Program-made: the position numbers and the translations under genes
Source of the DNA: a virus
Lineage: Duplodnaviria > Heunggongvirae > Uroviricota > Caudoviricetes
Strand: one strand, 5' to 3'
DNA length: 64,000 bases
IMG/VR virus record: IMGVR_UViG_3300029517_000186
Shown: one piece after another, positions 4,572-63,986 of the stretch
Layout of the letters: every line of letters begins with the position of its first letter
How positions within the stretch are numbered: the first letter of the stretch is position 1
Notes under the pieces: generated by a model
Told to the model about the DNA's origin: nothing
The model's database searches: none
Seen by the model: only the letters and a program-made list of their open reading frames with translations

Positions 4572-5504
4572 TAATGTATTATCCGTTGCATAGCCAATAA
4601 AATGCCTTATATGTGTCAGAATAATACCATGATGTAGTTATTATATGCTGATTTAAGAGATAAAAAATGTTAATTTGATAACATGTAATTGGTAATATTA
4701 GCAATTATATATGGATTAATTGGGTACAATAAACTGTATAATTAGTGAGAAAAATAAATATAACTGATTAATGGGATATAATTATTATTTACTAAAGTTA
4801 ATTAATGGAATTACTGGGAACATATATAGAAATGATAGAGTAAAGGAAATAGATCTAAGAGCAAATAAGAAAGAATTAGTGTATATGAATGCATCTATTG
4901 AGACAGAAATGGGATTATTGGGCTTACTAAGGCATTTGCAGGGCGAAGAATAGATTTACAGGAATCTAGTAATCATAATTTTTGTAAATATCATATATTA
5001 TATATAAGAAAATTATATGATTTATTGGTATATTAAAGGCATTAATTGGGATAAATGAAGTGCTTGCCAGAGACAGATAAGGAATTGCCAGGGAAATAAA
5101 CACAAAATGTATTAAGCTGATAAATGATATTGTATAAGGATATAACAATAATAGTTATACGCTTTTAATCCTTAATAATATTCTGGCGGTTATTATATTA
5201 AGTCTTAAAACGCTATTAAGGAATAATCAAATGTATTATATAAGGCTCTAATTTTTATATTTTAATAATAAAAAGCGTATCAATGAAAAAGAAAATAATA
5301 GAAGGGCTTTGAAGAAGGTGTATGACATATTACACTTAAAAGAAGTGTAATCATAAAAAATACAGCTACCTATTGATCAATGTCATTAAGTTAAGCTTTT
5401 GAGTATAAAAAAATAAAAACAGTCACTAATCTTGTAAAGAAAATGATATGATACCTCTTAAGTAGACATGGTAAATAACCAAAATCTATTTAAGGGGTAT
5501 TTTT

Positions 5505-6188
5505 ATGTCCAGAAAATCTAAGTATTCTATAGAACAGCGAGTACAAGCATGTGAAGACTATCACAATGGAACTCGTAGTTTAGAAGAAATATGTATAGCT
5601 CTCGGAACTACCAGAAAGAAAACTATCCGTGAGTGGTTAAAAAAATATGAGAAGTACGGAGTATCTGCTTTTCAGGAAAAGTCATATAACAAAAGTTATA
5701 CAAAAGAATTTAAAATTCAAGTAGTGGAAGAATATATAAGTGGTTATGGTTCACTAGAGGAACTGATTGTAAAATATGATATTTCTTCTACAACCCAACT
5801 ACGAAAATGGATTTCAGTGTATAATGCCAATAGAGAACTTAGGGACTATTGTCCAAAACCGGAGGTCTATATGGCAGAAGCAAGAAGAAAAACAAGCATT
5901 GAAGAACGCAAAGAAATCGTAAAGTATTGTATCGGACATAATCGTAATTATAAAGAAACTGCAAGTGCTTATGATGTCTCATACAATCAAGTCTATTCTT
6001 GGGTAAAAAAGTATGATGCACTAGGTGAAGAAGGATTAACAGATAAGCGTGGATGTCATAAAACGGATGAAGAGGTAGACGAATTGGAACGTCTTCGTCG
6101 GGAAAATGTACGTTTAAAGAAGCAACTCAAAGAAAAGGATATGTTAACGGAACTGTTAAAAAAAGTACAGGAATTCGAAAGGATGTGA
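5505..6188 (+). CDS. IS3-family transposase OrfA (HTH plus leucine zipper)
   Basis: 227 aa; two HTH regions; C-terminal LERLRRENVRLKKQLKEK zipper; AAGGGG RBS. Confidence 0.85.
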   Translation: MSRKSKYSIEQRVQACEDYHNGTRSLEEICIALGTTRKKTIREWLKKYEKYGVSAFQEKSYNKSYTKEFKIQVVEEYISGYGSLEELIVKYDISSTTQLRKWISVYNANRELRDYCPKPEVYMAEARRKTSIEERKEIVKYCIGHNRNYKETASAYDVSYNQVYSWVKKYDALGEEGLTDKRGCHKTDEEVDELERLRRENVRLKKQLKEKDMLTELLKKVQEFERM

Positions 6189-7150
6189 GGCTCGGAAAAC
6201 TTCGCTATAATTCGGAATTTATAGCAATAAAGTTTTTCTATGAAACAAAGAACTGGAGTATTAATTGGATGTGTAAACAGCTCGAAATATCAAGAGCTGC
6301 CTATTATAAGTGGTTGAATCGTGAGATACCTGAACAGGAAGCAGAAAATATGAAGTTGGCAGAACTTATAAAGGAGTACGATGAGCGCTTTAATCACATC
6401 CTGGGTTATAGAAGAATGACCTCTTGGATTAATCACTTTAACCATACTGATTATAAACCGAAGAGAGTACATCGAATTATGAAGAAGTTGGGTATTCATT
6501 CAGTCATTAGACGAAAGCAGAAAAAATATACTTCTTCGACACCGGAAGCAGTAGCTGAAAATAGATTAGGCAGAGACTTTTATGCAACTGCACCAAATGA
6601 GAAGTGGACAACTGATGTAACAGAGTTTAAGATTCCAGGTGAGAAAAAGAAACTTTATTTAAGTGCCATTCTTGACTTATATGATAGATACCCTGTTGCG
6701 TATGTTATCAGCACGAGAAATAATAATGAGCTCGTATTTAAAACCTTTGATAAAGCTATTGCCGCAAATCCTGAAGCTAAACCATTATTTCATAGTGATA
6801 GAGGTTTTCAGTATACAAGTAAGGTATTTCAAATGAAACTTAAGGAACATAAGATAGAACAATCTATGTCCAGAGTTGGACATTGTATAGATAATGGACC
6901 TACTGAAGGATTCTGGGGTATCATAAAATCAGAAATGTATCAGATGTACGATATAACAGATGAATCTTCATTAAGATTTGCAATAAAAGATTATATTAGA
7001 TTCTACAGTGAAGAACGACCACAAGACAGGTATCATTGCAAAACGCCACTAGATGTAAGAGCTGAAGCATTATCTACAGCAACACCACAACAGTATCTTA
7101 TTCCTAAAAATAAACGAATTGAAAAATATAAAGAGAAATGGTGTGCATAG
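6185..7150 (+). CDS. IS3-family transposase OrfB (DDE integrase core), made as an OrfAB fusion by -1 frameshift
   Basis: rve-type motifs WTTDVTEF, HSDRGFQYTS, CIDNGPTEGFWGIIKSE; overlaps orfA in the -1 frame. Confidence 0.85.
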   Translation: MRLGKLRYNSEFIAIKFFYETKNWSINWMCKQLEISRAAYYKWLNREIPEQEAENMKLAELIKEYDERFNHILGYRRMTSWINHFNHTDYKPKRVHRIMKKLGIHSVIRRKQKKYTSSTPEAVAENRLGRDFYATAPNEKWTTDVTEFKIPGEKKKLYLSAILDLYDRYPVAYVISTRNNNELVFKTFDKAIAANPEAKPLFHSDRGFQYTSKVFQMKLKEHKIEQSMSRVGHCIDNGPTEGFWGIIKSEMYQMYDITDESSLRFAIKDYIRFYSEERPQDRYHCKTPLDVRAEALSTATPQQYLIPKNKRIEKYKEKWCA

Positions 7151-8356: not shown

Positions 8357-8587
8357 TTCATCTGAATTCAGGTTGATTATAGAAAGTCAGCCTTATTTCT
8401 ATGCAAATTTTTAGAATAAAAGAAAATACCTACCGCAGAATATCATCCACGATAGGTATTTTTGTTTTTACGACATCTTAACTAAATAGAGATTTAGTCG
8501 GCACTAATATCATTTTACATGTCAAGACTTGTGTGTGGTCTTAACTAAATGACATTGACCTATTGATAACTGCATTTTATTTATATA

Positions 8588-9616
8588 TTACATAAAAGAT
8601 TGTATATTATATCCTTTTCGTCTGAAACGAACTCTAATCTTTTTTATTGCTTTTGATTCAATCTGTCTGATTCGTTCTCTGGAAACATTCCATTCAGTAC
8701 CTATATCTTTTAAAGTTTTAACCTTTGAACCATATCCCATTCTACTCTTAATTACATATAATTCTCTAGGAGTGAGACAATCTTCAACTTCTTTCCAAAG
8801 CAGTTCATTCATTTCTTTTTGAATAATCGTATCTTCAACTTTAGGTTCAGGCACTTCTATATAATCAGCCAAACACGAATCGTCATGGCCTTCATCACTT
8901 TGAATAGGTGCATCTAACGAAACCAATTCATTAAAGCTCTGAATATGTACAAGCATTTCTTTAGTTAAAAGAGGATATCTTTGTTTTACTACATCATATA
9001 ATTCATCAATTGTAGGTTTTCTTTGAAGTTTATTAGTTAAATCCACAAATGTAGTCTTAACAAAAGAATCCTGTTCTCTTACATGTACAGGGAATCTAAC
9101 TAATAAATCATAATTGGCTAATTCTCTATATATACTCTGTCTAATCCAATGAGTTGCATAAGTTGAAAACGCATATCCTAATTTATAATCAAACATTTGT
9201 ATAGCTTTGTATAATCCGAAAATACCGGCCTGACATAAATCATCCATTTCAAAACTTTGCGTTTTAGCTGTAACAGCTTTAGCAATACTGATAACTAAAC
9301 GCATATTAGATAAAATCAATTTTTCTGTTATTTCCTTTTTCTTTTTAGGATGTTTTTTTATCTCTTCAAATAATTTAAGAGTTTCATCTTTGGATAAAAC
9401 CGGATAATCAGCAAATGATTTAATATAATAAGTTATATTATTTTCTAATAATAGTTTCTGTTTTTCATTTGAAATCTCTTTATCATTTAAAATATCGGTA
9501 TAATTATCCTCTGATAAAATATTTATGTTTTCTATTGGTTTATTTGTATCAAATAATTCATCAACATATTCATCTTTATTGTTTTTTTTATTTAATAATA
9601 AATTCTTATCTGCCAT
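8588..9616 (-). CDS. RNA polymerase sigma factor, sigma-70 family
   Basis: Region 2 motifs LVISIAK and YATHWIRQSI; region 4 HTH TLKDIGTEWNVSRERIRQIESKAIKKIR; AGAGGAG RBS. Confidence 0.9.
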   Translation of the reverse strand: MADKNLLLNKKNNKDEYVDELFDTNKPIENINILSEDNYTDILNDKEISNEKQKLLLENNITYYIKSFADYPVLSKDETLKLFEEIKKHPKKKKEITEKLILSNMRLVISIAKAVTAKTQSFEMDDLCQAGIFGLYKAIQMFDYKLGYAFSTYATHWIRQSIYRELANYDLLVRFPVHVREQDSFVKTTFVDLTNKLQRKPTIDELYDVVKQRYPLLTKEMLVHIQSFNELVSLDAPIQSDEGHDDSCLADYIEVPEPKVEDTIIQKEMNELLWKEVEDCLTPRELYVIKSRMGYGSKVKTLKDIGTEWNVSRERIRQIESKAIKKIRVRFRRKGYNIQSFM

Positions 9617-10027: not shown

Positions 10028-10939
10028 TTATTGCTCCTTAATTTCTATATTGATATTTTCAAAACACTTAATTACAAAATAAATTAAACTCATTATGCAG
10101 ACTATTAAAATGCATACCTGTAAATATATATTTGTTATAAAAAACGTAAATGGTATTAATGCCACACAGTTTATTAGAATATGATATAAGCTGCTAAGTT
10201 TAATACCATATTTATCTCTTACAGCACCTAACAAATATCCGCCAAAAGCATATATAGGGAATAAAATAAAATTAAAATGAATTATTCCAAATAAAACTGC
10301 TTGGATTATATTTGCACATAATTTATTGTTGCTTGCTTTATATGCATAGCCATAAATTATATATCTAAAAGTCAATTCCTCAATAATAGGTGCCACAAAA
10401 GTTGCTATTATTGTAGATATAATTGTTTTTATTCCTAAACTTCCATAATCAATATTTGATACATTTACAAAATGCATTTGAATTCCTGAAATAAGCTGCA
10501 ATATTACAGAAGTTAATATGAAACAAAATACAAAATTCCAATTTACTACTAATTTATTTTTCATAAACAAATCTTTTTTATAATTGTAAAATGAGCTTTT
10601 TATACAAATAATGCACATAACAAACATTAATGTATATGTTGATATTGTGTAAATTAATCGAAATCCTTCATAATCTATTTTAGTTGAAATTCCTCCTGCA
10701 TCATTCATATACATATTTAATAGACTGTCTATAAATGTTGCAATAAACATAGAAAATAAAATTATAAAAACAGAAATAATAAATGGAATAAAAATCTTTA
10801 TATACTGTTTTGATTTTGAAAAGAAAGAATTACTTTTCATTTTGTTTTTTGCCATAAAATCCATATAAGAATTTAAATCATGCTTATTTTTTTTATTTCT
10901 TAATTCCTTAATATTACTGTTGTTGTTACTAAGTATCAT
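10028..10939 (-). CDS. CPBP-family (Abi/CAAX, PrsW-like) intramembrane metalloprotease
   Basis: Polytopic; motif 1 EELTFR (APIIEELTFRYII), motif 2 FGIIH, downstream conserved His; GGAGGA RBS. Confidence 0.8.
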   Translation of the reverse strand: MILSNNNSNIKELRNKKNKHDLNSYMDFMAKNKMKSNSFFSKSKQYIKIFIPFIISVFIILFSMFIATFIDSLLNMYMNDAGGISTKIDYEGFRLIYTISTYTLMFVMCIICIKSSFYNYKKDLFMKNKLVVNWNFVFCFILTSVILQLISGIQMHFVNVSNIDYGSLGIKTIISTIIATFVAPIIEELTFRYIIYGYAYKASNNKLCANIIQAVLFGIIHFNFILFPIYAFGGYLLGAVRDKYGIKLSSLYHILINCVALIPFTFFITNIYLQVCILIVCIMSLIYFVIKCFENINIEIKEQ

Positions 10940-10968
10940 ATATTTTCCTCCAACCTTTCTAATATATA

Positions 10969-12823: not shown

Positions 12824-13129
12824 TTAAAAAGAATACTTGTTACATATATTTTCTTTTATATAAGTTATCAAATTTTTAGCATAATCTATTCTGCCTTTTA
12901 ATTTATCAATATCATTAATATCATATGAAACATTACCAGTAATACTAATATAAAAATCATCTTTTATGGTTTTAATTTCAATATCATAATATGGAATCTT
13001 TGGAGTAAAAAAGAATCTTATGACTTTACCTGTTCTTAAATCTCTTCTTAATAGAATTCTATATGTTTTATTATCGTATTCATCTATTATCCATGGACCG
13101 GATTCATATGTTCTAATAAAAGTTACCAT
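12824..13129 (-). CDS. hypothetical protein
   Basis: 101 aa; ATGA overlap with the upstream ORF. Confidence 0.5.
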   Translation of the reverse strand: MVTFIRTYESGPWIIDEYDNKTYRILLRRDLRTGKVIRFFFTPKIPYYDIEIKTIKDDFYISITGNVSYDINDIDKLKGRIDYAKNLITYIKENICNKYSF

Positions 13130-16332: not shown

Positions 16333-17322
16333 TTATAACTTTACAATTTTCTCATTGATTTTCATTCTAAATGTATTGATTTTGTCTATATCTGGCTCAT
16401 CTGGCAATACAGAGTTTTTACATGCATTTTCAAACTTATTCTTGTATTCATCTACTATTTCAAAAAACTGTTTATTAGGGATTCCATTTTCATCAAGATA
16501 TACACCATTTCTAATATCCATCAACAAATCATGTTCTTTAATTCTTTTCGTTTGAATTTTCCCTTCAGAAACTAAATCAATTCCCATCATATACAATCTA
16601 AGTAAATGCATACTATGTTTTGCTATTTTACCATGATTTAATGCATGTTCATTCCTTTTACTTGTTTTCCGGTAATCTCTTAAAGTGTTATTAAATTCTG
16701 AAAGCATTCCTAACAAATCTTCCATTGAACACTGTGTTGCAATAATATTACATTTGATTTTGCCATCAACCAAATAAAAAGACACATTATTTTCATCTAA
16801 ATTGTACTTATCATTCATTTTCTTGGACATATTATTAAGCACTCCAGAAATGTGTCTATTTAATTCTTCCTCAGTTAAAGCAGCGTTGGTCTTCTGCTGC
16901 ATACGGTATAACTGTTGTAATGCATATTCACTAAATGTATTAATACATCTATTCGATAAAAAAATATCTTTATTTTTTAATAAAAGCTCCCCAATTTCAT
17001 TTTTATAAATATAATCATCTGTATCTAATCCTAAAAGTTCAATAGTGTTTGGATTGCATTTTGTTAATAAATCAATAATTTTGTCAAAACTATAAATAGT
17101 TGTATCTGTATTAACATCTACAAAATTTTCAAAATCATTACCTAACAAGATATCTTCTTTTCTTCTAACAGCAACTCCTCTTATATCAATATCGCTTTCT
17201 GGAAGATTTGTCCCATATGCTCTGCTACCACCTAATCCAAGTATACAAATATTCTTATCTAAATTTTGATTTTCCTTTAAAAATGAATACTCAGGCATAT
17301 TTAATATATTTTTATTTATCAT
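16333..17322 (-). CDS. Pol-beta superfamily nucleotidyltransferase (PF10127-like)
   Basis: G[GS]x9-13DhD motif GLGGSRAYGTNLPESDIDIRGV; C-terminal H..RL helix KHSMHLLRL. Confidence 0.7.
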   Translation of the reverse strand: MINKNILNMPEYSFLKENQNLDKNICILGLGGSRAYGTNLPESDIDIRGVAVRRKEDILLGNDFENFVDVNTDTTIYSFDKIIDLLTKCNPNTIELLGLDTDDYIYKNEIGELLLKNKDIFLSNRCINTFSEYALQQLYRMQQKTNAALTEEELNRHISGVLNNMSKKMNDKYNLDENNVSFYLVDGKIKCNIIATQCSMEDLLGMLSEFNNTLRDYRKTSKRNEHALNHGKIAKHSMHLLRLYMMGIDLVSEGKIQTKRIKEHDLLMDIRNGVYLDENGIPNKQFFEIVDEYKNKFENACKNSVLPDEPDIDKINTFRMKINEKIVKL

Positions 17323-17346
17323 ATTCTCTTTCCTATCCTTGTAATT

Positions 17347-17401
17347 GAACTACTCGCAACCGGCTATTGTCGGTTGGAGTTTTCTTGCTTAATTGCGATA
17401 A
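17347..17401 (-). repeat. copy 1 of the 55-nt structured repeat element (between ORF 17412..18044 and the nucleotidyltransferase gene)
   Basis: Plus strand GAACTACTCGCAACCGGCTATTGTCGGTTGGAGTTTTCTTGCTTAATTGCGATAA. Confidence 0.7.
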
Positions 17402-17411
17402 TATCATTCTT

Positions 17412-18044
17412 TTATTTTCTAACAATAGCAGAAAAATCTACTGACTGTAAAATCTTAATGATATCTTCTACTTCAGGACTTCTCCATGCAGTCATAGCAT
17501 AGGTATGAGCGTACTCATCATAATGATAATGATTTGCCTTTAGGTGTTCAGCGGCTGCCTTTTCTGTTAAAAACATTGTGTTTTCATAAATTTTATCTCT
17601 ATATGCATAACAGGTGAAAGTATATCTGCCATAATTATGCTCATTCAACCAAGTCTTTAAATCATCAAGATCAGTTAAGTATTCCTCATAATCATTATCT
17701 TCTTTTGATGTGATATAATATCCATCATATTCTTTTGAAATAACCCAAGAGTCACCGTTTTCTTCAAATTCCTTATTAAAAAATACAATTGCATCATCAA
17801 TATTATCAGCAACTTCTTCTACAGCTTCATTATCGATTAGTGTTACACCGTCTTCATATCCTTCTGGAACAATACACTTTTCTTTTCCCATAATAACCCA
17901 AAATCGAGGATCAGCTTGTCCTACATGGTCCTGTGTATTTAATTCATGCTGCAAATCAGACAAAAATTTGATTTCTTTATCTGTAATTTTATGTTTCTCT
18001 ACTGTGTCTGGATGGTATTGTAAATGTTCATGAAATATTGCCAT
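17412..18044 (-). CDS. hypothetical protein
   Basis: 210 aa; AAGGAG RBS. Confidence 0.6.
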   Translation of the reverse strand: MAIFHEHLQYHPDTVEKHKITDKEIKFLSDLQHELNTQDHVGQADPRFWVIMGKEKCIVPEGYEDGVTLIDNEAVEEVADNIDDAIVFFNKEFEENGDSWVISKEYDGYYITSKEDNDYEEYLTDLDDLKTWLNEHNYGRYTFTCYAYRDKIYENTMFLTEKAAAEHLKANHYHYDEYAHTYAMTAWRSPEVEDIIKILQSVDFSAIVRK

Positions 18045-21073: not shown

Positions 21074-22225
21074 TTATTCTACCTTAACAACGTCTCCTCT
21101 ATCTGATGTTTCAGTAATAACAATATACTTGATTTCCATATTGTCGTTTGCAAGAGCAATTCTTGTTACATTATCTTCCTTACTTGTATCGACAATCCAA
21201 TCATATCCTTCAACTGCAGACATTATCTTTGAATCAGTAATGATTTTATCAACATACTCTCCAATCATAATTCTGTCTTCAAGTCTGATAAAATCAGCAC
21301 TATTCCAACCAATTGAAACAGATTTAATATGTGAAGGGATATTAATGCTATTGAGTCTCATTAATGTACCACCATTAAGAGCAATCATTTCTGCTTTAAT
21401 ATGATCCATTTCGATTAATTCCTTAGTATTAGTAATTGTATCTAAATGATAATCACAATTATTGCATTCATCATAATCTCCACAATCATTTTCGCAGTCA
21501 TAACCACAATCACAATCAGGATTATAATAATTATTATCACATACCTGCTCTGTATATTCAATGACCCATGTAGGTACATTCATTGAATTTCTTACAGTAA
21601 TGACATTATTTATTGGTGCGTCAAGCATTAAATAACTTGAAATATAATTCTTTGCACCATCATAAACGATAATTTCAGCATTATCAAAATATTCAGCGAA
21701 AATATCTTTTCCATTACAATCCTTCTTTGTTTCAAAGTGTGTATAGGAAGTCTTTAGTATCACATATTTGTCACATACACCTATAACTTCCGGCATTGGA
21801 ATTGAAACTGGAATAAGTTTCTTAAACTTATCCTCATCCGGCTTATAAGCAAATAAATCAATATAATCATCATGTTCTGTTGTGTTTTCTCTAGGCAATA
21901 CAGCTAATAAAAGCTTACCTGGAACAGATGTAACGATACTCTTAATTACCAGTGAACCCTGCTGTGTAGCAGCAACACCATCCTTAAGTAAAATTCCGTC
22001 TTCTACTGAATATCCATCTGGAATATCTGGAATATTAGGATTGCTGATAAGTCTAAAAGCAATTGCGTTAGATGATGATATCATAACAGATATATCCTCG
22101 TTTACTTCACCATTTTCTAAAAGACAAGCCGTTCCTACGCCATCGGTAACAGATGTAATTAAATACTGTCTGTTGTCAACCTTGTTTAATACTGTTACAT
22201 TTTCTAAAATTTTGTTTTCTCTCAT
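21074..22225 (-). CDS. hypothetical protein, tandem paralogue A (Cys-rich insertion)
   Basis: 383 aa; shares N- and C-terminal blocks with 22358..23407; insert CDNNYYNPDCDCGYDCENDCGDYDECNNCDYH. Confidence 0.6.
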   Translation of the reverse strand: MRENKILENVTVLNKVDNRQYLITSVTDGVGTACLLENGEVNEDISVMISSSNAIAFRLISNPNIPDIPDGYSVEDGILLKDGVAATQQGSLVIKSIVTSVPGKLLLAVLPRENTTEHDDYIDLFAYKPDEDKFKKLIPVSIPMPEVIGVCDKYVILKTSYTHFETKKDCNGKDIFAEYFDNAEIIVYDGAKNYISSYLMLDAPINNVITVRNSMNVPTWVIEYTEQVCDNNYYNPDCDCGYDCENDCGDYDECNNCDYHLDTITNTKELIEMDHIKAEMIALNGGTLMRLNSINIPSHIKSVSIGWNSADFIRLEDRIMIGEYVDKIITDSKIMSAVEGYDWIVDTSKEDNVTRIALANDNMEIKYIVITETSDRGDVVKVE

Positions 22226-22357: not shown

Positions 22358-23407
22358 TTACTCTATGGTTATAATGTCTCCTCTATCTCTTGTTTCAGAA
22401 ATAACAAGAGTCTTTATCTCCATAGTATTTGTATTAGCAAGAGAAATTCTTGTAACATGATCCTTAGATGTAATATCCACAATTACATTATAACCTGCAA
22501 GCTCAGCAACTATCTTATCTGGGATCTTATATGTGATATCATTAATATACCACTTGCCTGAAGAAGCTTTAATAAGACTTGCGTTATATCCCTTTGAAAT
22601 TGATTCTGGAACACTGTCAATTGCTGTTGTCTTATAAAGACTTAATGAATGGCCTTCAGAAGTAATAAATCTTAATGTAATATAATCATCTTCCTTGATA
22701 ATTCCGTCAGAATCGACTACTGTATCTGCTTCAATTGCGAAAATTGTTTCATTAGGTGCCTTAACAGAATCTACAGCCTTAATTGGCTCTGCAAAAGAAA
22801 CATGATCAACAACTGCATCAGACATTACATCATATAACATGATTGCTGCAGCATCAAAGATATTATCTGTTTCAATAGTTCCATCTTCAAGCTTCTTATC
22901 CTTAGTATAAGTTCTTGAATATGTCATATATAACTGCATCTTATTCTCAGAAGAAGCAATGATTGTAACTTCTGGAATAGATCTTCTGATAAGCTTATTA
23001 AACTTATCTGACTCAACTGTATATGACATAATATCGAAATAACCTTCTCTTGGTTCTCTTGGTTCAACAGATAAAATAAGTCTTCCTGCAACACCTGTAA
23101 TAATACTATTAATTACCAGTGAACCCTGTTCCGTAGCAGGGACTCCATTCTTAAGCAAAATTCCGTTTTCTACAGTATATCCAGTTGGAACATCTGGGAT
23201 ATTAGGATCATCAATCAACTTGTAAGCTATTGCATTATTAGCTGTAATTACTGCAGTAACCGAAGCATCAAGTGAACCATCCTCCTTAATTAACTTGGCT
23301 GTTCCTTTAATGGAATCACCTGAACCATCAACATTAATTATCTGATAATTCTTACGGTCTACCTTGTTTAATACTGTTACATTAGTCTTAATCTTGTTTA
23401 TTCTCAT
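22358..23407 (-). CDS. hypothetical protein, tandem paralogue B
   Basis: 349 aa; NVTVLNKVD, IPDVPTGYTVENGILLKNGV, C-terminal VTRISLANTNTMEIKTLVISETRDRGDIITIE. Confidence 0.6.
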   Translation of the reverse strand: MRINKIKTNVTVLNKVDRKNYQIINVDGSGDSIKGTAKLIKEDGSLDASVTAVITANNAIAYKLIDDPNIPDVPTGYTVENGILLKNGVPATEQGSLVINSIITGVAGRLILSVEPREPREGYFDIMSYTVESDKFNKLIRRSIPEVTIIASSENKMQLYMTYSRTYTKDKKLEDGTIETDNIFDAAAIMLYDVMSDAVVDHVSFAEPIKAVDSVKAPNETIFAIEADTVVDSDGIIKEDDYITLRFITSEGHSLSLYKTTAIDSVPESISKGYNASLIKASSGKWYINDITYKIPDKIVAELAGYNVIVDITSKDHVTRISLANTNTMEIKTLVISETRDRGDIITIE

Positions 23408-24934: not shown

Positions 24935-25498
24935 TTAAAAATATTTCGAATAAAATAAATCAACCTGATGATACAAATATTGCAAATCTTTATCGTTAGT
25001 TATTAAAAAATCATATTCTTTTGAATTTTTATATGTATCAAATTCCTCTCTTTCACTCTCTAAGCGTATTCGCAAAGTATCAGGATTATCTCCTCTCAGA
25101 AGCCCTCTTTTAATTATTTTATTTTCAGCCAAATCAACATATACACAAATCAAATTAAATAAATTACGTTTATTATGCTCTTTTAACCATTTAACGCCAT
25201 CGGGATTTATAATGTATACGCATATATTTGAAGGTAAAGCTTCTAATGCAGCACAATATTCTATTCCAGTTTTATTATTTTTTGTATAAGCTATGATTGT
25301 TTTTTCTTTTAAAACATTGCTCATTTCTTCCTTTGAAATAAATACATGTTCCACACCATTTGTCTCATATTCTCTTTTGGGCCTTGTTGTCATTGAAACA
25401 ACTGAAGGAATTCTATACTTTTCATTTAACACCTTTGCGACTGTATCCTTACCACTTGATGTTTTCCCTATAACTGCAATTATTGTTTTTTTATCCAT
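24935..25498 (-). CDS. guanylate kinase-like (d)NMP kinase
   Basis: P-loop GKTSSGKDT; guanylate kinase signature TTRPKREYETNGVEHVF; AGGAGA RBS. Confidence 0.8.
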   Translation of the reverse strand: MDKKTIIAVIGKTSSGKDTVAKVLNEKYRIPSVVSMTTRPKREYETNGVEHVFISKEEMSNVLKEKTIIAYTKNNKTGIEYCAALEALPSNICVYIINPDGVKWLKEHNKRNLFNLICVYVDLAENKIIKRGLLRGDNPDTLRIRLESEREEFDTYKNSKEYDFLITNDKDLQYLYHQVDLFYSKYF

Positions 25499-25515
25499 AT
25501 TAAAAATCTCCTAAT

Positions 25516-25570
25516 GAACTACTCACAACCGACTTTTGTCGGATGGAGTTTTCTTGCAATTCTTCGATAA
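25516..25570 (-). repeat. copy 2 of the 55-nt structured repeat element (immediately upstream of the kinase RBS)
   Basis: GAACTACTCACAACCGACTTTTGTCGGATGGAGTTTTCTTGCAATTCTTCGATAA. Confidence 0.7.
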
Positions 25571-25720
25571 CTAATGCCATAAGCAATTATATAATTCATC
25601 AATGCGGTTCTGGCATCTGTCAGCTTCTAATTCATTACCGGATTCCGAATACTGGTCCCTTTTAATTTCCCAATTTTGAATTTCTTTTTTTATTCTTGTA
25701 TATTTACCATTTTCTTTCAT
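25571..25720 (-). CDS. small hypothetical protein (49 aa)
   Basis: AAGGAG RBS; ATG at 25720; TAG stop abuts the repeat element; promoter at 25756. Confidence 0.4.
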   Translation of the reverse strand: MKENGKYTRIKKEIQNWEIKRDQYSESGNELEADRCQNRIDELYNCLWH

Positions 25721-25755: not shown

Positions 25756-25768
25756 TATGACAGAAAAA
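25756..25768 (-). promoter_or_regulatory. conserved promoter motif
   Basis: TATGACAGAAAAA, then the terminator at 25764..25800 (AGTCCCATTTA ... TAAATGGGACT). Confidence 0.55.
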
Positions 25769-31202: not shown

Positions 31203-32777
31203 TTACTTAGTAGAATTCTTTTCTGACTTAGACACTTTTTCAGGAACATTCTTTACAGTTACCTTAATCTCCGGGTCAGCATCTTCTGGAATGCCTGTAA
31301 AGTTCACATTCTTTGTTGTCTTGGCATCATATGTATTAGCCTTCATTACTTCTGTTAAATCAAAGCCAGTTGTTTCCTTAACGGATTCAATTGTCTTTGC
31401 AAGTACTGATGGTACATTACTGCTGAATGAACCTACTCCGGTTTCACCATTACCACTGTCAATAATAGTTACCTTATCAATGGCTTCTAATGGCTTTGCA
31501 ATAGCTCCTGCCATCTCTGGAAGTACTTTGATAATCATTTCAGTCATGGCAGCTTTACCATACTTAGCCATTGCATCTGCTTTCTTCTCCATAGCTTCAG
31601 CTTCAGCTAATCCCCTTGCCTTAATACTTTCAGCATCAGCAACACCTTTTGCCTTAATACTCTCTGCTTCTGCAAAGCCCTGTGCCTTTACTGCTTCAGC
31701 TTCCTGTTCCTTAGCAAATCTGTCTGCTTCTGCCTGTGATTTCTTAGCTTCAGCCTGCTTCTGAATTTCAAACTGCTTTGCTTCTGCTTCCTTCTGTCTC
31801 TGATAAAGTTCTGCATCTGCCTTCTGCTGTGCTGCATACTTTTCAGCTTCAGCCTGCTTACGGATATCGGCATCAAGTGTCTTTTCCTTAACAGTGATTT
31901 CCTTTTCTCTTAATTCAATTTCCTTTTCCTGCTTTGCAATATTAGCATTGGCAGTTGTAATTTCAATTGTCTTTCTCTGTTCCTGCTGCTGAATTTCATA
32001 TGCCGCATCAGCTTCAGCCTTCTTGACATCTGCTGCTCTCTTTAATTCCTGCTTCTTTATCTCAAGTTCATTATTTCTTTCTGCAATAGCTGTCTCAGCT
32101 TCAATCCTTGCATCATTTGCCTGCTTTTCAGCATTAGCCTTTGCAACTGCAATATCTCTTTCAGACTCAGCTCTTGATATCTGTGCTGACTTACTGATAC
32201 TTACAACCCTGTCAATACCAAGATTTTCAATAACATTACCTTCATCTGTAACATTCTGAACATTAAAGCTTACAATTTCAAGACCCATTCTTTCCATATC
32301 AGGAGCAGCATTCTCCTGTACCTTTTCAGCAAATAACTTTCTGTCCTGTACAATATCCTCAAGCTTCATCTGTCCTATAATTTCACGGACATTACCTTCA
32401 AGTACATCTACAACTGATTCTCTGATATAATCTGAATTTTTATTAAGGAAGTTACTTGCCGCTTTTCCAAGCATTTCAGGTGATGAACCAATCTTAATCT
32501 TTACAGCAGAATCAATATTAACATTGATATACTCATTTGTTGGTACTGATTCCTTTGTCTTGACATCAACAGAAATCATCTTTAAATCAAGTTTATCAAC
32601 TCTCTGTAAAAATGGTATCTTAAGTGATGACCTTCCAATTACATACTTAGGTGTCTTTCTAAGTCCTGATACAATAAGTGCCTTGTCTGTCGGGGCCTTA
32701 ATATAACTTGCAAATAATAATGCAATTAATACTACAACCACCGCTACTACAATTCCAATCGTTACTTCAATTCCCAT
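31203..32777 (-). CDS. flotillin-like SPFH/band-7 protein
   Basis: N-terminal TM plus SPFH domain; long EA-rich coiled coil (AEAEKYAAQQKADAELYQRQKEAEA...). Confidence 0.85.
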   Translation of the reverse strand: MGIEVTIGIVVAVVVVLIALLFASYIKAPTDKALIVSGLRKTPKYVIGRSSLKIPFLQRVDKLDLKMISVDVKTKESVPTNEYINVNIDSAVKIKIGSSPEMLGKAASNFLNKNSDYIRESVVDVLEGNVREIIGQMKLEDIVQDRKLFAEKVQENAAPDMERMGLEIVSFNVQNVTDEGNVIENLGIDRVVSISKSAQISRAESERDIAVAKANAEKQANDARIEAETAIAERNNELEIKKQELKRAADVKKAEADAAYEIQQQEQRKTIEITTANANIAKQEKEIELREKEITVKEKTLDADIRKQAEAEKYAAQQKADAELYQRQKEAEAKQFEIQKQAEAKKSQAEADRFAKEQEAEAVKAQGFAEAESIKAKGVADAESIKARGLAEAEAMEKKADAMAKYGKAAMTEMIIKVLPEMAGAIAKPLEAIDKVTIIDSGNGETGVGSFSSNVPSVLAKTIESVKETTGFDLTEVMKANTYDAKTTKNVNFTGIPEDADPEIKVTVKNVPEKVSKSEKNSTK

Positions 32778-32813
32778 AAATTTTATTCCTTTCTTTTAGT
32801 AAAAATAAGCATG

Positions 32814-32868
32814 AACTACTCACAAACGACATTAGTCGGGTGGAGCTTTCTTGCTTGATTGCGATAAA
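32814..32868 (-). repeat. copy 3 of the structured repeat element, in the 5'UTR of the flotillin gene between its class II promoter and RBS
   Basis: GAACTACTCACAAACGACATTAGTCGGGTGGAGCTTTCTTGCTTGATTGCGATAA. Confidence 0.7.
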
Positions 32869-34787: not shown

Positions 34788-34888
34788 AAAGCATTAATGA
34801 AAGGAGATTCTAAATTCATGATGATATAACAAAAGCAGGAGATGCTTGCTTATCTCCTGCTAAAATATTAATTTCTAAATTATTTTAT

Positions 34889-34943
34889 GAATTATTCACA
34901 ACCGACTATTGTCAAATAGAGTTTTCTTGCTATTCTTCGATAA
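34889..34943 (-). repeat. copy 4 (degenerate) of the structured repeat element
   Basis: GAATTATTCACAACCGACTATTGTCAAATAGAGTTTTCTTGCTATTCTTCGATAA; stem-disrupting substitutions. Confidence 0.55.
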
Positions 34944-35002
34944 TATAGAAATAAAATTGATTTTTTCTTTTTAATTGAATATTTTATATATGACATAAAA
35001 TA

Positions 35003-44880: not shown

Positions 44881-46806
44881 TTAGTAATTATACGAAAATG
44901 ACATATGATTATTTAAATGTTTTAAATATGGGGTAAGATATACTTTACGTTCATGATATATTTCTGGGACACATAAGTACATTTGTTTTTTTGCTCTTGT
45001 AATAGCAACATAGAATACTCTTAGATTTTCCTGTCTTTCTTCTTCAGCCATGCTCATAGCATTAAATCCTGGGTAAACTCCTGTAACACAATCAAGTACA
45101 AATACATATTCCCATTCCAAACCTTTTGCTGAATGTACTGTTGAAATAACCAAGCCCTCTTCTTCATCTTTGTTATCCATCCCTAAAGTTAAATTATCAA
45201 GAAAAGCGTTTAAAGATTTGTGATTATTAAACACTGTACATAATTCATACAACTGTTTTAAAATATTTTTATCATCATCTAATTTATCCTGTTCATTTAT
45301 TTTTTGCTCTTCATTTAATTTAGCATTTTCCAATAATTCTTTTCTTTGTTCAATATAATATTCATTTATTTTTAGTACAAGATCAGGGATACTTAACTGG
45401 TTCCTATAATACTTGATTCTAAAATTCAAAATTGTATTATGCAATTTTTCCATGTCTTGATGAAATTTTTTTGTTGGATATTCATGCAGCAAGAAATCTT
45501 TTTCTGTTACATGTTCTACAATATTCCTTGCATATGTATCACCAATTCCATATATTAATTGCAATATTCTAAACCACGCTAATGTGTCAATTGGATTAGC
45601 AATAACTCTTAAATAGGCTAAGATATCCTGGACAGCTTCTCTTTCAAAAAATTTAGGGCCGCCAACTTTTTTGTATGGAATATTATTATTCATTAACAAT
45701 GTTTCCAATATAGCTGAATCTCTGGAATACTTCTCTAGCACTGCTATATCCTTATATGGGACATTTTTATTATGCAGTTTAATTATTCTATTTAAAATGC
45801 AGGTTGCCTCTTCTGCCTGATTTTGAAGGCTTATGACTTCAGGCATAGTTCCTTGTTTATTATTACTTGTCATATTCTTAGGATATCCAAAATTAGCATA
45901 CCGGTTCATAACTGAATTTGCTAAATTAAGTATTTCTGTAGTGGAACGATAATTCTTTTCAAGTTTTATTACTTTGCAATTTTTATGCTTTTTAGGGAAA
46001 TTAATAAAGTTAGACACATTACTTCCTCTGAAAGCATAAATACTTTGATAATCATCTCCTACAACTGCTAGATTCTCATATTTCTGAGCCATTTTAAATA
46101 TAATTCTTTCCTGCAGATTATTGGTATCTTGATACTCATCTACCATAATATATTTATAACTGCTTGAAATTTGATTTCTGACAGCTTTATTATCTAATAA
46201 TTCGTTAAAGTATATTAACAAATCATCATAATCTACCAGATTATTTTCCTTTTTATAATTTTTGTATTTTTCAAACAGCTCAGTATATATATATGATAAA
46301 AATGCCAAGTTACTATCTTTAAGCCCAATAACTGTTTCTAATGGTAAATCTTGATTAATTGACATGCTAAATATTTTGGCGATTTCAGATACAGAGAAGC
46401 CGCTTTTTATTTTATATTTTTCTGGATTTTCAGCTATAAGAAGTTTAATTGTATTTACAACATCGCTCTCAGAAAGTATAGTAAAGTTTTTTCTTAGACC
46501 AACTAAAACCCCATATATCCTTAACATTTTGGCACAAAAAGAATGATATGTACATGCAGTAATCTTATTGCATCTTTCATCTAATATTTGCGCAGCTCTT
46601 TCACTCATTTCATTAGCTGCCTTATTAGTGAATGTTAAAAGCAGAATACTCTGAGGTGGAATTCCATTTTCTATCATATATGCAACTCTATGTATTAATG
46701 TTGCTGTTTTACCTGTACCTGCTCCTGCAATAATAAGTAATGGCCCATCAATTGTTGTAGCAGCTTCATATTGCTGCTCATTTAAAACAGCTTTATAATC
46801 AATCAT
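44881..46806 (-). CDS. UvrD/PcrA/Rep-family DNA helicase
   Basis: Walker A AGAGTGKT; VDEYQDTN; VAITRAKK. Confidence 0.9.
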   Translation of the reverse strand: MIDYKAVLNEQQYEAATTIDGPLLIIAGAGTGKTATLIHRVAYMIENGIPPQSILLLTFTNKAANEMSERAAQILDERCNKITACTYHSFCAKMLRIYGVLVGLRKNFTILSESDVVNTIKLLIAENPEKYKIKSGFSVSEIAKIFSMSINQDLPLETVIGLKDSNLAFLSYIYTELFEKYKNYKKENNLVDYDDLLIYFNELLDNKAVRNQISSSYKYIMVDEYQDTNNLQERIIFKMAQKYENLAVVGDDYQSIYAFRGSNVSNFINFPKKHKNCKVIKLEKNYRSTTEILNLANSVMNRYANFGYPKNMTSNNKQGTMPEVISLQNQAEEATCILNRIIKLHNKNVPYKDIAVLEKYSRDSAILETLLMNNNIPYKKVGGPKFFEREAVQDILAYLRVIANPIDTLAWFRILQLIYGIGDTYARNIVEHVTEKDFLLHEYPTKKFHQDMEKLHNTILNFRIKYYRNQLSIPDLVLKINEYYIEQRKELLENAKLNEEQKINEQDKLDDDKNILKQLYELCTVFNNHKSLNAFLDNLTLGMDNKDEEEGLVISTVHSAKGLEWEYVFVLDCVTGVYPGFNAMSMAEEERQENLRVFYVAITRAKKQMYLCVPEIYHERKVYLTPYLKHLNNHMSFSYNY

Positions 46807-46840
46807 AAATTATTACAATCCTTTCCATTATTAAATTTAT

Positions 46841-46895
46841 GAACTACTCGCAACTGACTATTGTCGGATGGAGTTTTCTTACTATTCTTCGATAA
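46841..46895 (-). repeat. copy 5 of the structured repeat element, in the 5'UTR of the UvrD gene
   Basis: GAACTACTCGCAACTGACTATTGTCGGATGGAGTTTTCTTACTATTCTTCGATAA. Confidence 0.7.
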
Positions 46896-60512: not shown

Positions 60513-60566
60513 ATAAAAAGACTTAGTATGATACATATTATAAACATACTAAGTCTTTTTCTATCT

Positions 60567-60620
60567 GAACTACTCACAACCAACTATTGTTGGATGGAGT
60601 TTTTTGCTTAATTGCGATAA
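60567..60620 (-). repeat. copy 6 of the structured repeat element, directly after the stop of 60624..61340
   Basis: GAACTACTCACAACCAACTATTGTTGGATGGAGTTTTTTGCTTAATTGCGATAA; CCAAC/GTTGG replaces CCGAC/GTCGG, a compensatory double change. Confidence 0.7.
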
Positions 60621-60623
60621 TTA

Positions 60624-61340
60624 TTATTTTGTTGAAGTAGTTACTTTTATATTTGGTTTATCAATTGTAATATCCATCCTATCAGAATCATTTAGTTTTT
60701 TTGCCATTTCGTCTTTAACCATTTTTATATTTTGTTCTAAATCAGGCATTTCAGTAGATTCAGTAACTATATCTATATTATTTGAATCATTATTTTTTTC
60801 TTCTGGTTTATCAGCTAAACAATTATTTAATTCATTAATATATTGCCTTTTTTTGAATTCCTGCAATTCTAATAATATTTTGTTTTTTAATTCCTTATTA
60901 GCAATATAAAATTTGTATTTATCAAGTGCTTCATAATTAAGTTTTGCTGCAGGTTTATGTTTTATAATACCTGTTACTGTTAAACCATCAAATGTTTCTT
61001 TAATATGGTCAATTTGTTCAACTTTATAATCTGTCATTTTGTCAATTCCAGGTACAAAATAGCTAAAATCAATATATTCATTATATATTTCAAATCTAGC
61101 CTGAGGGTACCAATTAATAACATTTTTAAGAATCAAAAAGCATAATAAATTTGAACCCGCAATTATTCCGCTGGCAATTACACCTGCAAAATTTTCTGTT
61201 CCGTAAAAAATAATTTCGCAAACAAGTCCACCTATAATAAGTGCAAGATTAAAAATAATAATAAGAGAATGAACTGGCCTGATATCCGGTAGTCTACTCA
61301 ACATATTATATGAATTAATTGGGTTATTTTTATTGTTCAT
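60624..61340 (-). CDS. hypothetical membrane protein
   Basis: 238 aa; two N-terminal TM helices; charged C-terminal region. Confidence 0.6.
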   Translation of the reverse strand: MNNKNNPINSYNMLSRLPDIRPVHSLIIIFNLALIIGGLVCEIIFYGTENFAGVIASGIIAGSNLLCFLILKNVINWYPQARFEIYNEYIDFSYFVPGIDKMTDYKVEQIDHIKETFDGLTVTGIIKHKPAAKLNYEALDKYKFYIANKELKNKILLELQEFKKRQYINELNNCLADKPEEKNNDSNNIDIVTESTEMPDLEQNIKMVKDEMAKKLNDSDRMDITIDKPNIKVTTSTK

Positions 61341-62780: not shown

Positions 62781-63986
62781 ATGTCAGATAAATCTTATAC
62801 AATTTGCAAAATCATGAAATTAAATTCACTAAATGCTAATGGCAGATATAGTGTTAGATCTGCAGGCGAACATAATTTAAGGGAGTATGTACCATATAAT
62901 TGTGATTCTGAAAAACAAAATTTAAATAAAGATATTGTTGAACTTCCTAAAATGCTTAATGGAAGCCATTACTCCTATCAGACTGTTGTAAAAAATGCAA
63001 TTAAAGAAATTCAAGATAATGGTACAATGGGAAAAGTTCGTCCTGATGCAGTTTATGCATTTGAAATTTGTCTAGGTTTTAATCCGGCAGATGGAAAGGA
63101 CTGGAAAGATATTATTTCAGAAAAAGACCTAGATAAATGGTGTCAGGAAAATAAAAAATGGCTTGAAGAGCGTTTTGGTAAAAACAATTTAAAGCATTTA
63201 GTATTACATATGGATGAATCAACTCCTCATTTACATGCTTTAATTGTTCCTATTAATAATAAAGGTAGGTTAAGTGCTAAATCATTTATTAATGGCCCGA
63301 CTGATTTATCAAAATTGCAGACTGAATATGCAAAGAAAGTAGGTTCACAATTTGGGTTATCAAGGGGTGTTTCTAAAAAAGAAATAAGAGCTTCTAAAGA
63401 ATTGGAAAATAAATTATATCCTAACTATTCTGATATATCTAAATTCAAAAAAGCCACTCTTGGTAAAATAATGGATGAAAGTGAAATAATAAAGGTTAAC
63501 CCGAAAGAATTGGATAGTAATGGGCATATTTTGCCATCTTACGAAGAAAGAGTGTTAGGTGAATTTCAGAATGTAAAATATCATTATTTAACTTTAGAAA
63601 ATTCATTACGCCAGGAATTAAAAGAAGAACTAAAGCAAGAAATAAAAAAAGTAGATACAGACTTTGAAAGGATTGCACTTGAAAAAGAAGAATTTGAAAA
63701 AGAAAAAAAGAAAAAAGATGCAGAGTTAAAACAAAAAGAAGAGGAACTTATTTCAAAAGAACATGAGTTACAGAAGCTATTAGGTGTATTAGAAAGTACA
63801 AAAAAATCAATCAGGGAAATCAAAAAAGATTATACATATTTTGAAACATTAAATCGTGCCCTTAAGCATGAATCTAATAAGGATATTGCTAAAGATTTAT
63901 ATAAACAGTTAAATAAGTTAGTTGAAGAACAGCATAAAAGAGATAAAGAAAATATTCATGCAATTAAACAATTTGATATAAGATAA
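62781..63986 (+). CDS. mob: MobV/Pre-family plasmid mobilisation relaxase
   Basis: N-terminal HNLRE motif; motif III HMDESTPHLHALIVPI; C-terminal coiled coil. Confidence 0.85.
   Translation: MSDKSYTICKIMKLNSLNANGRYSVRSAGEHNLREYVPYNCDSEKQNLNKDIVELPKMLNGSHYSYQTVVKNAIKEIQDNGTMGKVRPDAVYAFEICLGFNPADGKDWKDIISEKDLDKWCQENKKWLEERFGKNNLKHLVLHMDESTPHLHALIVPINNKGRLSAKSFINGPTDLSKLQTEYAKKVGSQFGLSRGVSKKEIRASKELENKLYPNYSDISKFKKATLGKIMDESEIIKVNPKELDSNGHILPSYEERVLGEFQNVKYHYLTLENSLRQELKEELKQEIKKVDTDFERIALEKEEFEKEKKKKDAELKQKEEELISKEHELQKLLGVLESTKKSIREIKKDYTYFETLNRALKHESNKDIAKDLYKQLNKLVEEQHKRDKENIHAIKQFDIR

Follow-up and report, generated by a model that had tools for sequence, protein, structure and literature searches.

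All genes in the window (the whole 64,000-nt stretch of DNA that was analysed) lie on the minus strand. Pfam content comprises Pol III alpha, RecA, RecJ, two UvrD-like helicases, a primase-like protein, a bifunctional PBP, GGDEF, HD-GYP, a PARP-like protein and a MobV relaxase. Related contigs are 320–400 kb in length and originate from human-associated metagenomes. Published Inocle-type giant extrachromosomal elements are about 395 kb in size with 24–32% GC; they conserve a bifunctional PBP, and their ORFs run in the direction of replication (PMC12340149). The replicon carrying the window appears to fit this description.

Six copies of a short repeat are present in the window, all co-oriented with the genes. 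The element is 57 nt long with the TAM (TTAT) and 53 nt as the miniature itself (hereafter mini). It has no coding capacity at this length (53–57 nt). The copies, with their covariance model scores, are as follows.

Copy 1, 17345..17401, minus strand: 76.2 bits, found by pattern and covariance model; TAM TTAT at 17398–17401, tail derived from the left end (LE) at 17385–17397, hairpin at 17347–17384, right terminus TTCAA at 17345–17349.
Copy 2, 25514..25570, minus strand: 84.3 bits, found by pattern and covariance model; TAM at 25567–25570, hairpin at 25516–25553, TTCAT at 25514–25518.
Copy 3, 32811..32867, minus strand: 76.2 bits; inner stem partly decayed (CCCGAC/GTCGTT).
Copy 4, 34887..34943, minus strand: 67.6 bits; decayed, with end GAATAATTCAT and stem TTTGAC.
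Copy 5, 46839..46895, minus strand: 79.4 bits; C·A mismatch in the stem on the sense strand.
Copy 6, 60565..60620, minus strand: 73.1 bits; 1-nt deletion in the tail.

The pattern GAACTACTCRCAA-N16-GGAGYTTT, with at most 3 mismatches, matches the plus strand of the window at exactly six places; 100 dinucleotide shuffles gave no match. Repeat finding in the window recovers the same family. A covariance model built from 22 independent sites, minis only, scores the six copies at 67.6–84.3 bits; the next best match in the window reaches 18 bits. The six places and the shared orientation with the genes given in the initial annotation are confirmed, with refined coordinates. Read on the minus strand, the element is TTATCG(C/A)A…AGCAAGAAAACTCCATCCGAC-loop-GTCGGTTGTGAGTAGTTCA(T). 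The annotated start, TTATCG(C/A)A, is common to all copies; the annotated end, GAGTAGTTCA(T), is common to all except copy 4.

Copy 1 begins 10 nt past the stop of gene 17412–18044 and lies 22 nt upstream of the start codon of an RlaP-like nucleotidyltransferase gene (Pfam; 16333–17322). Copy 2 is 15 nt upstream of a guanylate/dNMP-kinase-like gene (Pfam; 24935–25498). A 47-codon ORF absent from the gene list (about 25571–25714) ends in TAG directly at its edge. The copy is not in a plain 5′UTR, a correction to previously described contexts that are otherwise mostly right. Copy 3 follows a CTGTCAT promoter-like motif and precedes a flotillin/SPFH gene (31203–32777) by 33 nt. Copy 5 is about 15 nt downstream of the same motif and 32 nt upstream of a UvrD-like helicase gene (44881–46806). 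Both precede the RBS of the respective gene. Copy 4 is located between the promoter-like TGTCATAT and an intrinsic terminator. Copy 6 directly abuts the TAATAA stop of gene 60624–61340, and a strong intrinsic terminator then follows.

Fold and substitution pattern

The hairpin proposed for the coding strand is the minimum-free-energy fold, with a consensus of 11 pairs. Minus-strand RNA of the non-decayed copies, folded as single sequences, has z-scores of −2.3 to −3.3. Plus-strand RNA folds equally well or better (−13 to −22 kcal/mol), so neither strand nor molecule is identifiable from folding alone. As ssDNA, the hairpin has −9 kcal/mol and a z-score of −4.9.

Covariation in copies 1 and 6 had been taken as a sign of selection on RNA structure. 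In copy 6, CCAAC/GTTGG is a true double change (G-C to A-T), the sole one among the six copies. The 'register shift' of copy 1 is not covariation: its U-to-A change adds one pair, and its other change creates an A·C mismatch. Extension to 22 independent sites gave no excess over shuffles. One double change was observed, compared with 0.5 expected from shuffles; the covariation score was 0.057, compared with 0.060 in shuffles; the named structure was paired in 94.4% of the cells of the alignment, exactly the shuffled mean. Across strains, orthologous copies diverge by 4.1% in the element and by 1.9–2.2% in the 120-nt flanks. Private substitutions strike stems, tails and loops alike. Among stem transitions, G·U on the sense strand is about as frequent as G·U on the antisense strand. 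The loop varies among the orthologues of site 8 (AATA, TAAT, AAAT). With no excess covariation, change faster than in the flanks and mutations that do not spare the stems, single copies are under no detectable purifying or structure-preserving selection. The family consensus must therefore be kept by the way in which copies are generated. The same observations weigh against the RNA processing or stability site, or regulator-binding site, suggested in the initial annotation; its other suggestion, a miniature mobile element, proved correct, the ends being homologous to those of a full-length IS200/IS605 element.

Distribution and insertion sites

Viral, genome and metagenome collections were searched by pattern scans and then by BLAST, which gathered 66 copies at 22 distinct sites. 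Loci were fetched via element matches; the sample is therefore biased towards filled sites. Most of the 22 sites are in relatives of the same giant-element family, several of which have the CTGTCATAT promoter motif in common. Lachnospiraceae MAG chromosomes account for two sites: one (L011) between thiD and thiC, downstream of a TPP riboswitch, the other (L012) with a PBP1A gene on one side and a convergent gene on the other. Nearly every site is intergenic, and the element there has the orientation of one or both neighbouring genes. All 21 tail-bearing sites have TTAT at their left edge, and 20 of the 22 sites have TTCAT at the right. No conservation beyond these edges was found in the 22-site set, and the flanks are unrelated. 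Two independent minis lie directly 3′ of the promoter sequence ctgtcatattaa; the promoter-then-element arrangement is explained by AT-rich promoter regions, which supply the TTAT target. Unrelated sites carry identical 57-mers (site 6 and site 15; site 8 in L032 and site 1 in L050), and linker subfamilies are common to several sites. Both GTG (LE-type) and GCG (RE-type, right end) variants occur among the minis.

The 57-mer has no match in PLSDB plasmids or INPHARED phages. No Rfam family was found at the element, either at gathering thresholds in the window or at E ≤ 1 in seven loci. String searches of the literature for the core sequence gave irrelevant matches only. The loci from the relaxed viral scan (L017–L028) and four of the seven genome matches (L010, L013–15) were discarded as chance matches in which the hairpin is absent.

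Insertion is visible directly for a full-length IS (not a mini). The filled site in L029 reads …GAGTAATTCAT/AAAAAAGAAATAGG…, and the empty orthologous sites in L049 and L065, about 94% identical to L029 over 1.2–1.9 kb, read …GAATAATTAT/AAAAAAGAAATAGG…. The IS thus inserted exactly 3′ of TTAT and ends in TTCAT, with nothing duplicated. For the mini, the thiD-thiC spacer of L011 is informative. It is 102 nt long with the mini, compared with 43–49 nt in the nearest relatives, in which the covariance model finds nothing. ThiD of L011 ends in …GYDW-LSRC, compared with …SYEYFEK, the element supplying the last four codons and the stop. The mini is acquired, not ancestral, in this spacer, as judged from spacer length and C-terminus, the nearest ThiD being 65% identical. 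Filled/empty polymorphism of minis was not found among related contigs; every orthologous site is filled in this sample, which was drawn from element matches. None of the 22 sites carries a full-length copy in any strain sampled; all have the mini form.

Relation to the ends of an insertion sequence

On the top (coding) strand, the element consists of the TAM TTAT, a left-end tail CG...AGCAAGAAAAC, an imperfect-palindrome hairpin CTCCATCCGAC-loop-GTCGGTTGTGAG and a right-end tip TAGTTCAT (TEM, TTCAT). In contig L029, from the same giant-element family, tblastn with approximate Y1-transposase queries detected an IS605 unit. Its tnpA (10554–10967) is intact (Pfam Y1_Tnp, 4.7e-40) and is followed by a tnpB. 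This unit was rejected as parent; its left-end hairpin is unrelated. Next to it in L029, a hairpin-only copy (site 18, 12964–13001) is located 50–88 nt past the stop of another gene, the product of which ends in …GNADINGAANIIRKVFPN… and has OrfB_IS605 and Cas12f1-like TNB domains, i.e., is a TnpB. Relatives of this TnpB were fetched with the surrounding DNA, and the identities below relate to it. A hairpin ending in …GAGTAGTTCAT follows the tnpB stop in three tnpB lineages of related contigs. The 38 nt at the 3′ side of the mini match the sequence past the tnpB stop in L029, L072–75 and L077, with a diverged, iso-structural form in L076, which makes four independent contexts.

L072–75: hairpin at 2329–2366, after the tnpB stop; TnpB with 83% amino acid identity; end …CATAGAAACTCCATCCGACGTTAGTCGGTTGCGAGTAGTTCAT.
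L077: hairpin after the tnpB stop; TnpB with 61% amino acid identity; variant 3′ tip …GTGGGTAGACAAT.
L076 (Butyrivibrio): hairpin after the tnpB stop; TnpB with 60% amino acid identity; diverged, same shape.

The hairpin past the tnpB stop is at the right end (RE) of the IS, where the ωRNA region lies. L072–75 have a second hairpin at the left end of the IS, next to a Y1_Tnp remnant and about 1 kb ahead of tnpB. This left end reads TTAT/CGTAACTTAGCAAGAAAACTCCATCCGACAACTGTCGGTTGTGAG/ATGAATTGC (in short form TTAT/CGTAACTTAGCAAGAAAACTCC…GTCGGTTGTGAG) and includes the 5′ tail of the window element in full; the 45 nt at the 5′ side of the mini match it (512–560). The element hairpin is thus present in both ends of the full-length IS, as direct repeats of about 33 nt. 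The covariance model, built from minis only, scores the full-length LE at 50.1 bits and the RE at 49.6 bits; another score is 57 bits. The parent IS consists of a divergent tnpA remnant and a compact tnpB of about 330 aa. Y1_Tnp genes in related contigs are those of L029 (intact) and L075 (remnant). An intact TnpA of matching end-specificity was not found, tnpA of L072–75 being a remnant and the intact tnpA of L029 having an unrelated left end. Neither tnpA nor a tnpB of this clade was found in the window, and its copies are therefore non-autonomous.

On these end matches, the six repeats are most probably (probability about 0.9) gene-less miniatures of the IS200/IS605 family, in which LE and RE are fused through one hairpin, i.e., 'terminal-only' PATEs. 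Members of this family encode a Y1 transposase (tnpA) and an RNA-guided nuclease (tnpB). A classical MITE was rejected: the element lacks terminal inverted repeats (TTATCG... at one end, ...GTTCAT at the other), and no target-site duplication is present at the minis or at the full-length insertion in L029. The initial annotation had named these two features as marks of a simple MITE. Neither was found, and the check is unsuited to the IS200/IS605 class, which has neither and inserts 3′ of a fixed tetranucleotide. A TnpB ωRNA (reRNA) was also rejected. The ωRNA scaffold is about 100 nt or more, overlaps the 3′ end of tnpB and ends at the RE, where the guide follows; of all this the minis retain no more than the terminal stem (about 38 nt), with LE sequence in front of it. 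Protein coding was rejected as well: copy 2 and L032 are readable as micro-ORFs, but most copies are interrupted by in-frame TAG stops, in the tail and in the loop. Nut-like antitermination, an RNase III-type processing site, a riboswitch, a small ribozyme, a recombinase site, parS or an operator, and oriT/ssi were considered anatomically and abandoned: the free loop, the absence of covariation, change faster than in the flanks and, decisively, the identity with IS ends speak against them all.

A cis-acting structured RNA kept by selection on its fold, acting as a processing or stability site or as a site for an RNA-binding protein of the element or the host, would account for copies that are always on the sense strand, intergenic and often just upstream of an RBS or abutting a stop. 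It would also account for the stable hairpin, the RNA z-scores and the compensatory change in copy 6; REP-type hairpins affect mRNA decay and translation. This reading is nevertheless improbable. Covariation is at shuffle level, the element changes faster than its flanks, sense and antisense G·U substitutions are equally frequent, Rfam has no match even at E ≤ 1, the same sequence forms transposon ends, and the element in the thiD-thiC spacer is acquired. Still less credible is a terminator facing against the genes, in which the plus-strand hairpin and the following TTTTCTT would stop antisense transcription or end convergent genes. The plus-strand RNA does fold as well or better, and in L012 the antisense orientation starts 10 nt past the stop of the convergent gene; yet the T-tract is interrupted, real sense-strand terminators follow several copies, and the 5′ tail, the TTAT/TTCAT termini and the identity with IS ends are left unexplained. 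A solitary CRISPR-repeat-like unit (anti-CRISPR RNA or crRNA mimic) or a REP mobilised by a RAYT has next to nothing in its favour. Invariant stems and 5′ flank with a free loop are as in Cas-bound repeats, and the single hairpin with a GTAG motif recalls REPs (PMC3333891). Against this, a scan of 185,579 species genomes gave single copies only and never arrays, GTAG is 3′ of the hairpin (3′ arm/tail) and not 5′ of its foot, tblastn with an approximate RAYT query gave no match in the examined loci, a weak point, and the ends derive from a tnpA/tnpB IS.

Within the miniature IS reading, the minis may never have moved as minis: each of the 22 sites would be the in-situ core-deletion scar of a separate full-length insertion, comparable with a solo LTR. 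The directly repeated LE and RE hairpins suit such deletion, the route is documented in Haloquadratum (PMC3119063), GTG and GCG minis are expected from varied crossover points, and related contigs have no mini-specific filled/empty site. On the other side, none of the 22 sites has a full-length copy in the strains sampled, unrelated sites carry identical 57-mers, and linker subfamilies recur across sites. The Haloquadratum authors likewise saw only the 52-bp form at six strain-specific insertions. In-situ scarring is regarded as the less likely origin. Few deletions followed by spread in trans are favoured because of the shared 57-mers, the shared linker subfamilies and the absence of full-length copies from the sites.

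Proposed origin and known systems

In the favoured reading, a core of about 1.8 kb would have been lost by repeat-mediated deletion between the directly repeated end-hairpins, giving a terminal-only PATE; the repeats are about 33 nt long, and the product expected of a deletion between them is precisely the element seen. The mini form probably arose in this way once or a few times. Minis would then have spread in trans, via TnpA encoded elsewhere in the element or the host, and inserted copies would decay roughly neutrally. The hairpin is presumed to be the ssDNA structure recognised by the TnpA transposase. In full-length copies it would double as the 3′ terminal stem of the tnpB-linked right-end/ωRNA region. 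Its conservation reflects a requirement of the transposition machinery and not a need of the host for an RNA. Site-specific effects on mRNA stability or translation would be by-products. As a secondary possibility, sense-strand hairpins, which share the terminal ωRNA stem, might titrate TnpB or be processed by it.

IS200/IS605 elements move as single-stranded top-strand circles, and TnpA binds their subterminal hairpins, a short guide 5′ of the hairpin foot locating the cleavage sites (PMC5027513, PMC3333891, PMC10055086). Insertion prefers the lagging-strand template (PMC5027513). Strict co-orientation with genes would follow from strand-specific insertion of the top strand into this template, and purging of disruptive insertions may reinforce it. 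Plus-strand GC skew in the window is −0.15 to −0.25, and all six copies are on the G-rich, gene-coding strand. Their orientation is consistent with a top strand on the lagging-strand template, as expected if genes are co-oriented with replication, replication direction being read from skew and gene orientation. Within the window, replication and transcription are inseparable as possible causes of copy orientation.

The 53-nt, one-hairpin mini might itself be an active transposon, its single palindrome, TAM and TEM being enough for peel-and-paste by TnpA; this is put forward tentatively, as the less likely case. Known TnpA dimers synapse two hairpins, and a one-hairpin substrate is not known to transpose. 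If active, minis would be a living link from IS200/IS605 insertion sequences to REP elements, and the smallest autonomous-in-cis transposition substrate known in bacteria.

A repeated 57-mer that folds neatly and lies in 5′UTRs resembles a new regulatory RNA. The element is in fact selfish DNA of a familiar sort, one of the PATEs (non-autonomous derivatives of IS200/IS605): transposon debris, with a hairpin maintained for a DNA transposase. Terminal-only PATEs, known earlier from haloarchaea, now extend to Lachnospiraceae chromosomes and to a giant extrachromosomal element (320–400 kb) of the human microbiome. The presence of one element in both hints at DNA traffic between them. Ends, TAM (TTAT) and TEM (TTCAT) are defined for a clade of compact TnpB (about 330 aa) and are needed to test these nucleases.

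The class had been described, contrary to the initial annotation, which recognised no family. In Haloquadratum walsbyi, 52-bp terminal-only PATEs arise by repeat-mediated deletion between the near-terminal palindromes of a 1.5-kb TnpB-encoding IS; examples are the 52-bp core-deletion form of HqIRS46 and the 52-bp derivative of the TnpB-encoding ISHwa23 (PMC3119063). Its authors suspected that the tiny form is still mobile (PMC3119063). The present minis resemble them in size (about 52–53 nt), in the lack of inverted terminal repeats and target duplication, in the single near-terminal palindrome left by deletion between directly repeated IS605-type end palindromes, and in multiple dispersed copies; in both, the tiny form may itself be mobile. 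They differ in being bacterial (from Lachnospiraceae and from an AT-rich giant extrachromosomal element in the human microbiome, not from haloarchaea), in their unrelated sequence and in the parent, here a tnpA remnant with a tnpB of about 330 aa.

As in IS608, ISDra2 and ISGst2, subterminal imperfect palindromes are on the top strand (PMC10055086, PMC5027513). TAM/TEM logic with TTTAT and TTCAT, together with PATE-like minis, is on record (PMC10055086). As in IS200/IS605 elements generally, insertion is 3′ of a TAM of 4–5 nt (TTAT here, TTTAT in ISGst2), the right-end TEM (TTCAT here) is one or two bases off the TAM, and terminal inverted repeats and target-site duplications are absent; the replication-biased orientation of these elements may apply to the copies too. 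Unlike full IS200/IS605 elements, the window copies have no genes and one hairpin only. They also lack the upstream ωRNA scaffold of about 100 nt and should therefore not make a functional guide RNA. REPs (PMC3333891) are likewise short, single-hairpin intergenic repeats related to IS200/IS605 end palindromes, dispersed at about one per 10 kb and transcribed within mRNAs. Unlike REPs, the minis have no GTAG 5′ of the hairpin foot and form no inverted pairs (BIME/REPIN). Unlike REP/RAYT systems, in which a RAYT would be expected (none was found with the approximate query), they come straight from a tnpA/tnpB IS of which full-length copies survive.

Promoter-like motif and candidate sigma factor

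The promoter-like motif TTTTTCTGTCATAT(AT) occurs in the window 37 times on the gene (minus) strand versus 8 times on the opposite strand, with about 2 per strand expected from base composition. Usual position about 20–30 nt upstream of an RBS; ATGTAAAAA is often found about 20 nt upstream of the motif. Examples on the minus strand lie at 25757, 32909, 34776 and 46913 (plus-strand coordinates of ATGACAG). The motif is common to the window and the related contigs L029 (same giant-element family), L034 and L058. It looks like the main promoter type of the window replicon. A candidate reader of these unusual CTGTCATAT promoters is encoded in the window.

8588–9616, minus strand: gene for a sigma factor of the sigma-70 family, with regions 2 and 4

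Surroundings of copies 2 and 4 of the mini

Copy 2 of the mini (one-hairpin repeat of 53–57 nt) adjoins the TAG stop of a short ORF with a CTGTCAT promoter directly upstream, left off the ORF list by the cut-off of 50 aa.

About 25571–25714, minus strand: ORF of 47 codons with its own RBS

The decayed copy 4 appears to be part of a stand-alone unit (34887–35000, minus strand), in which a promoter-like sequence, TGTCATATAT, is followed by about 45 nt, the copy itself, about 30 nt and an intrinsic terminator. Given this layout, a short non-coding transcript bearing the hairpin may be made there. A terminator after the mini is also present in L034 and L041.

Genes with a direct repeat, IS3-family segment and window edges

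Copies of a 155-nt direct repeat (21887–22041 and 23054–23208, 79% identity) lie inside two neighbouring genes, 21074–22225 and 22358–23407. Neither gene has a Pfam match. They are probably tandem paralogues.

The segment 5357–8578 is an IS3-family insertion sequence, oriented opposite to the surrounding genes. Since about 3.2 kb lie between its inverted repeats, it may hold extra cargo.

5357–5395 and 8540–8578: 39-nt inverted repeats, 82% complementary
5505–6188, plus strand: gene with HTH_Tnp_1 domain
6185–7150, plus strand: gene with rve integrase-core domain

GC skew in the window is flat at 1–8 kb and 56–64 kb and strongly negative between. Gene orientation switches at a relaxase gene. 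The switch and the flattening at the window edges could correspond to borders between modules or to a replication landmark.

62781–63986, plus strand: MobV-type relaxase (Mob_Pre) gene

IS200/IS605 units in relatives and a possible Lachnospiraceae link

Several further IS200/IS605-family units are present in relatives of the giant element. "Clade tnpB" denotes the tnpB of about 330 aa whose IS ends match the mini.

L029, 9451–10967: intact IS605 with tnpA and tnpB, left-end hairpin unrelated to the mini
L046, 11912–13027: tnpB of another clade
L006, 9093–10193: tnpB of another clade
L037, 7279–8058: tnpB of another clade
L054, 3499–3657: fragment with the right end and last ~100 nt of a clade tnpB

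The giant-element family is therefore heavily colonised by IS200/IS605-family elements. The mini is also carried, one copy each, by two Lachnospiraceae chromosomes (MAG loci L011 and L012), and outside the giant element the closest full-length tnpB relatives are those of Butyrivibrio (Lachnospiraceae; L076). Together, these occurrences hint that the giant element exchanges DNA with, or resides in, Lachnospiraceae.
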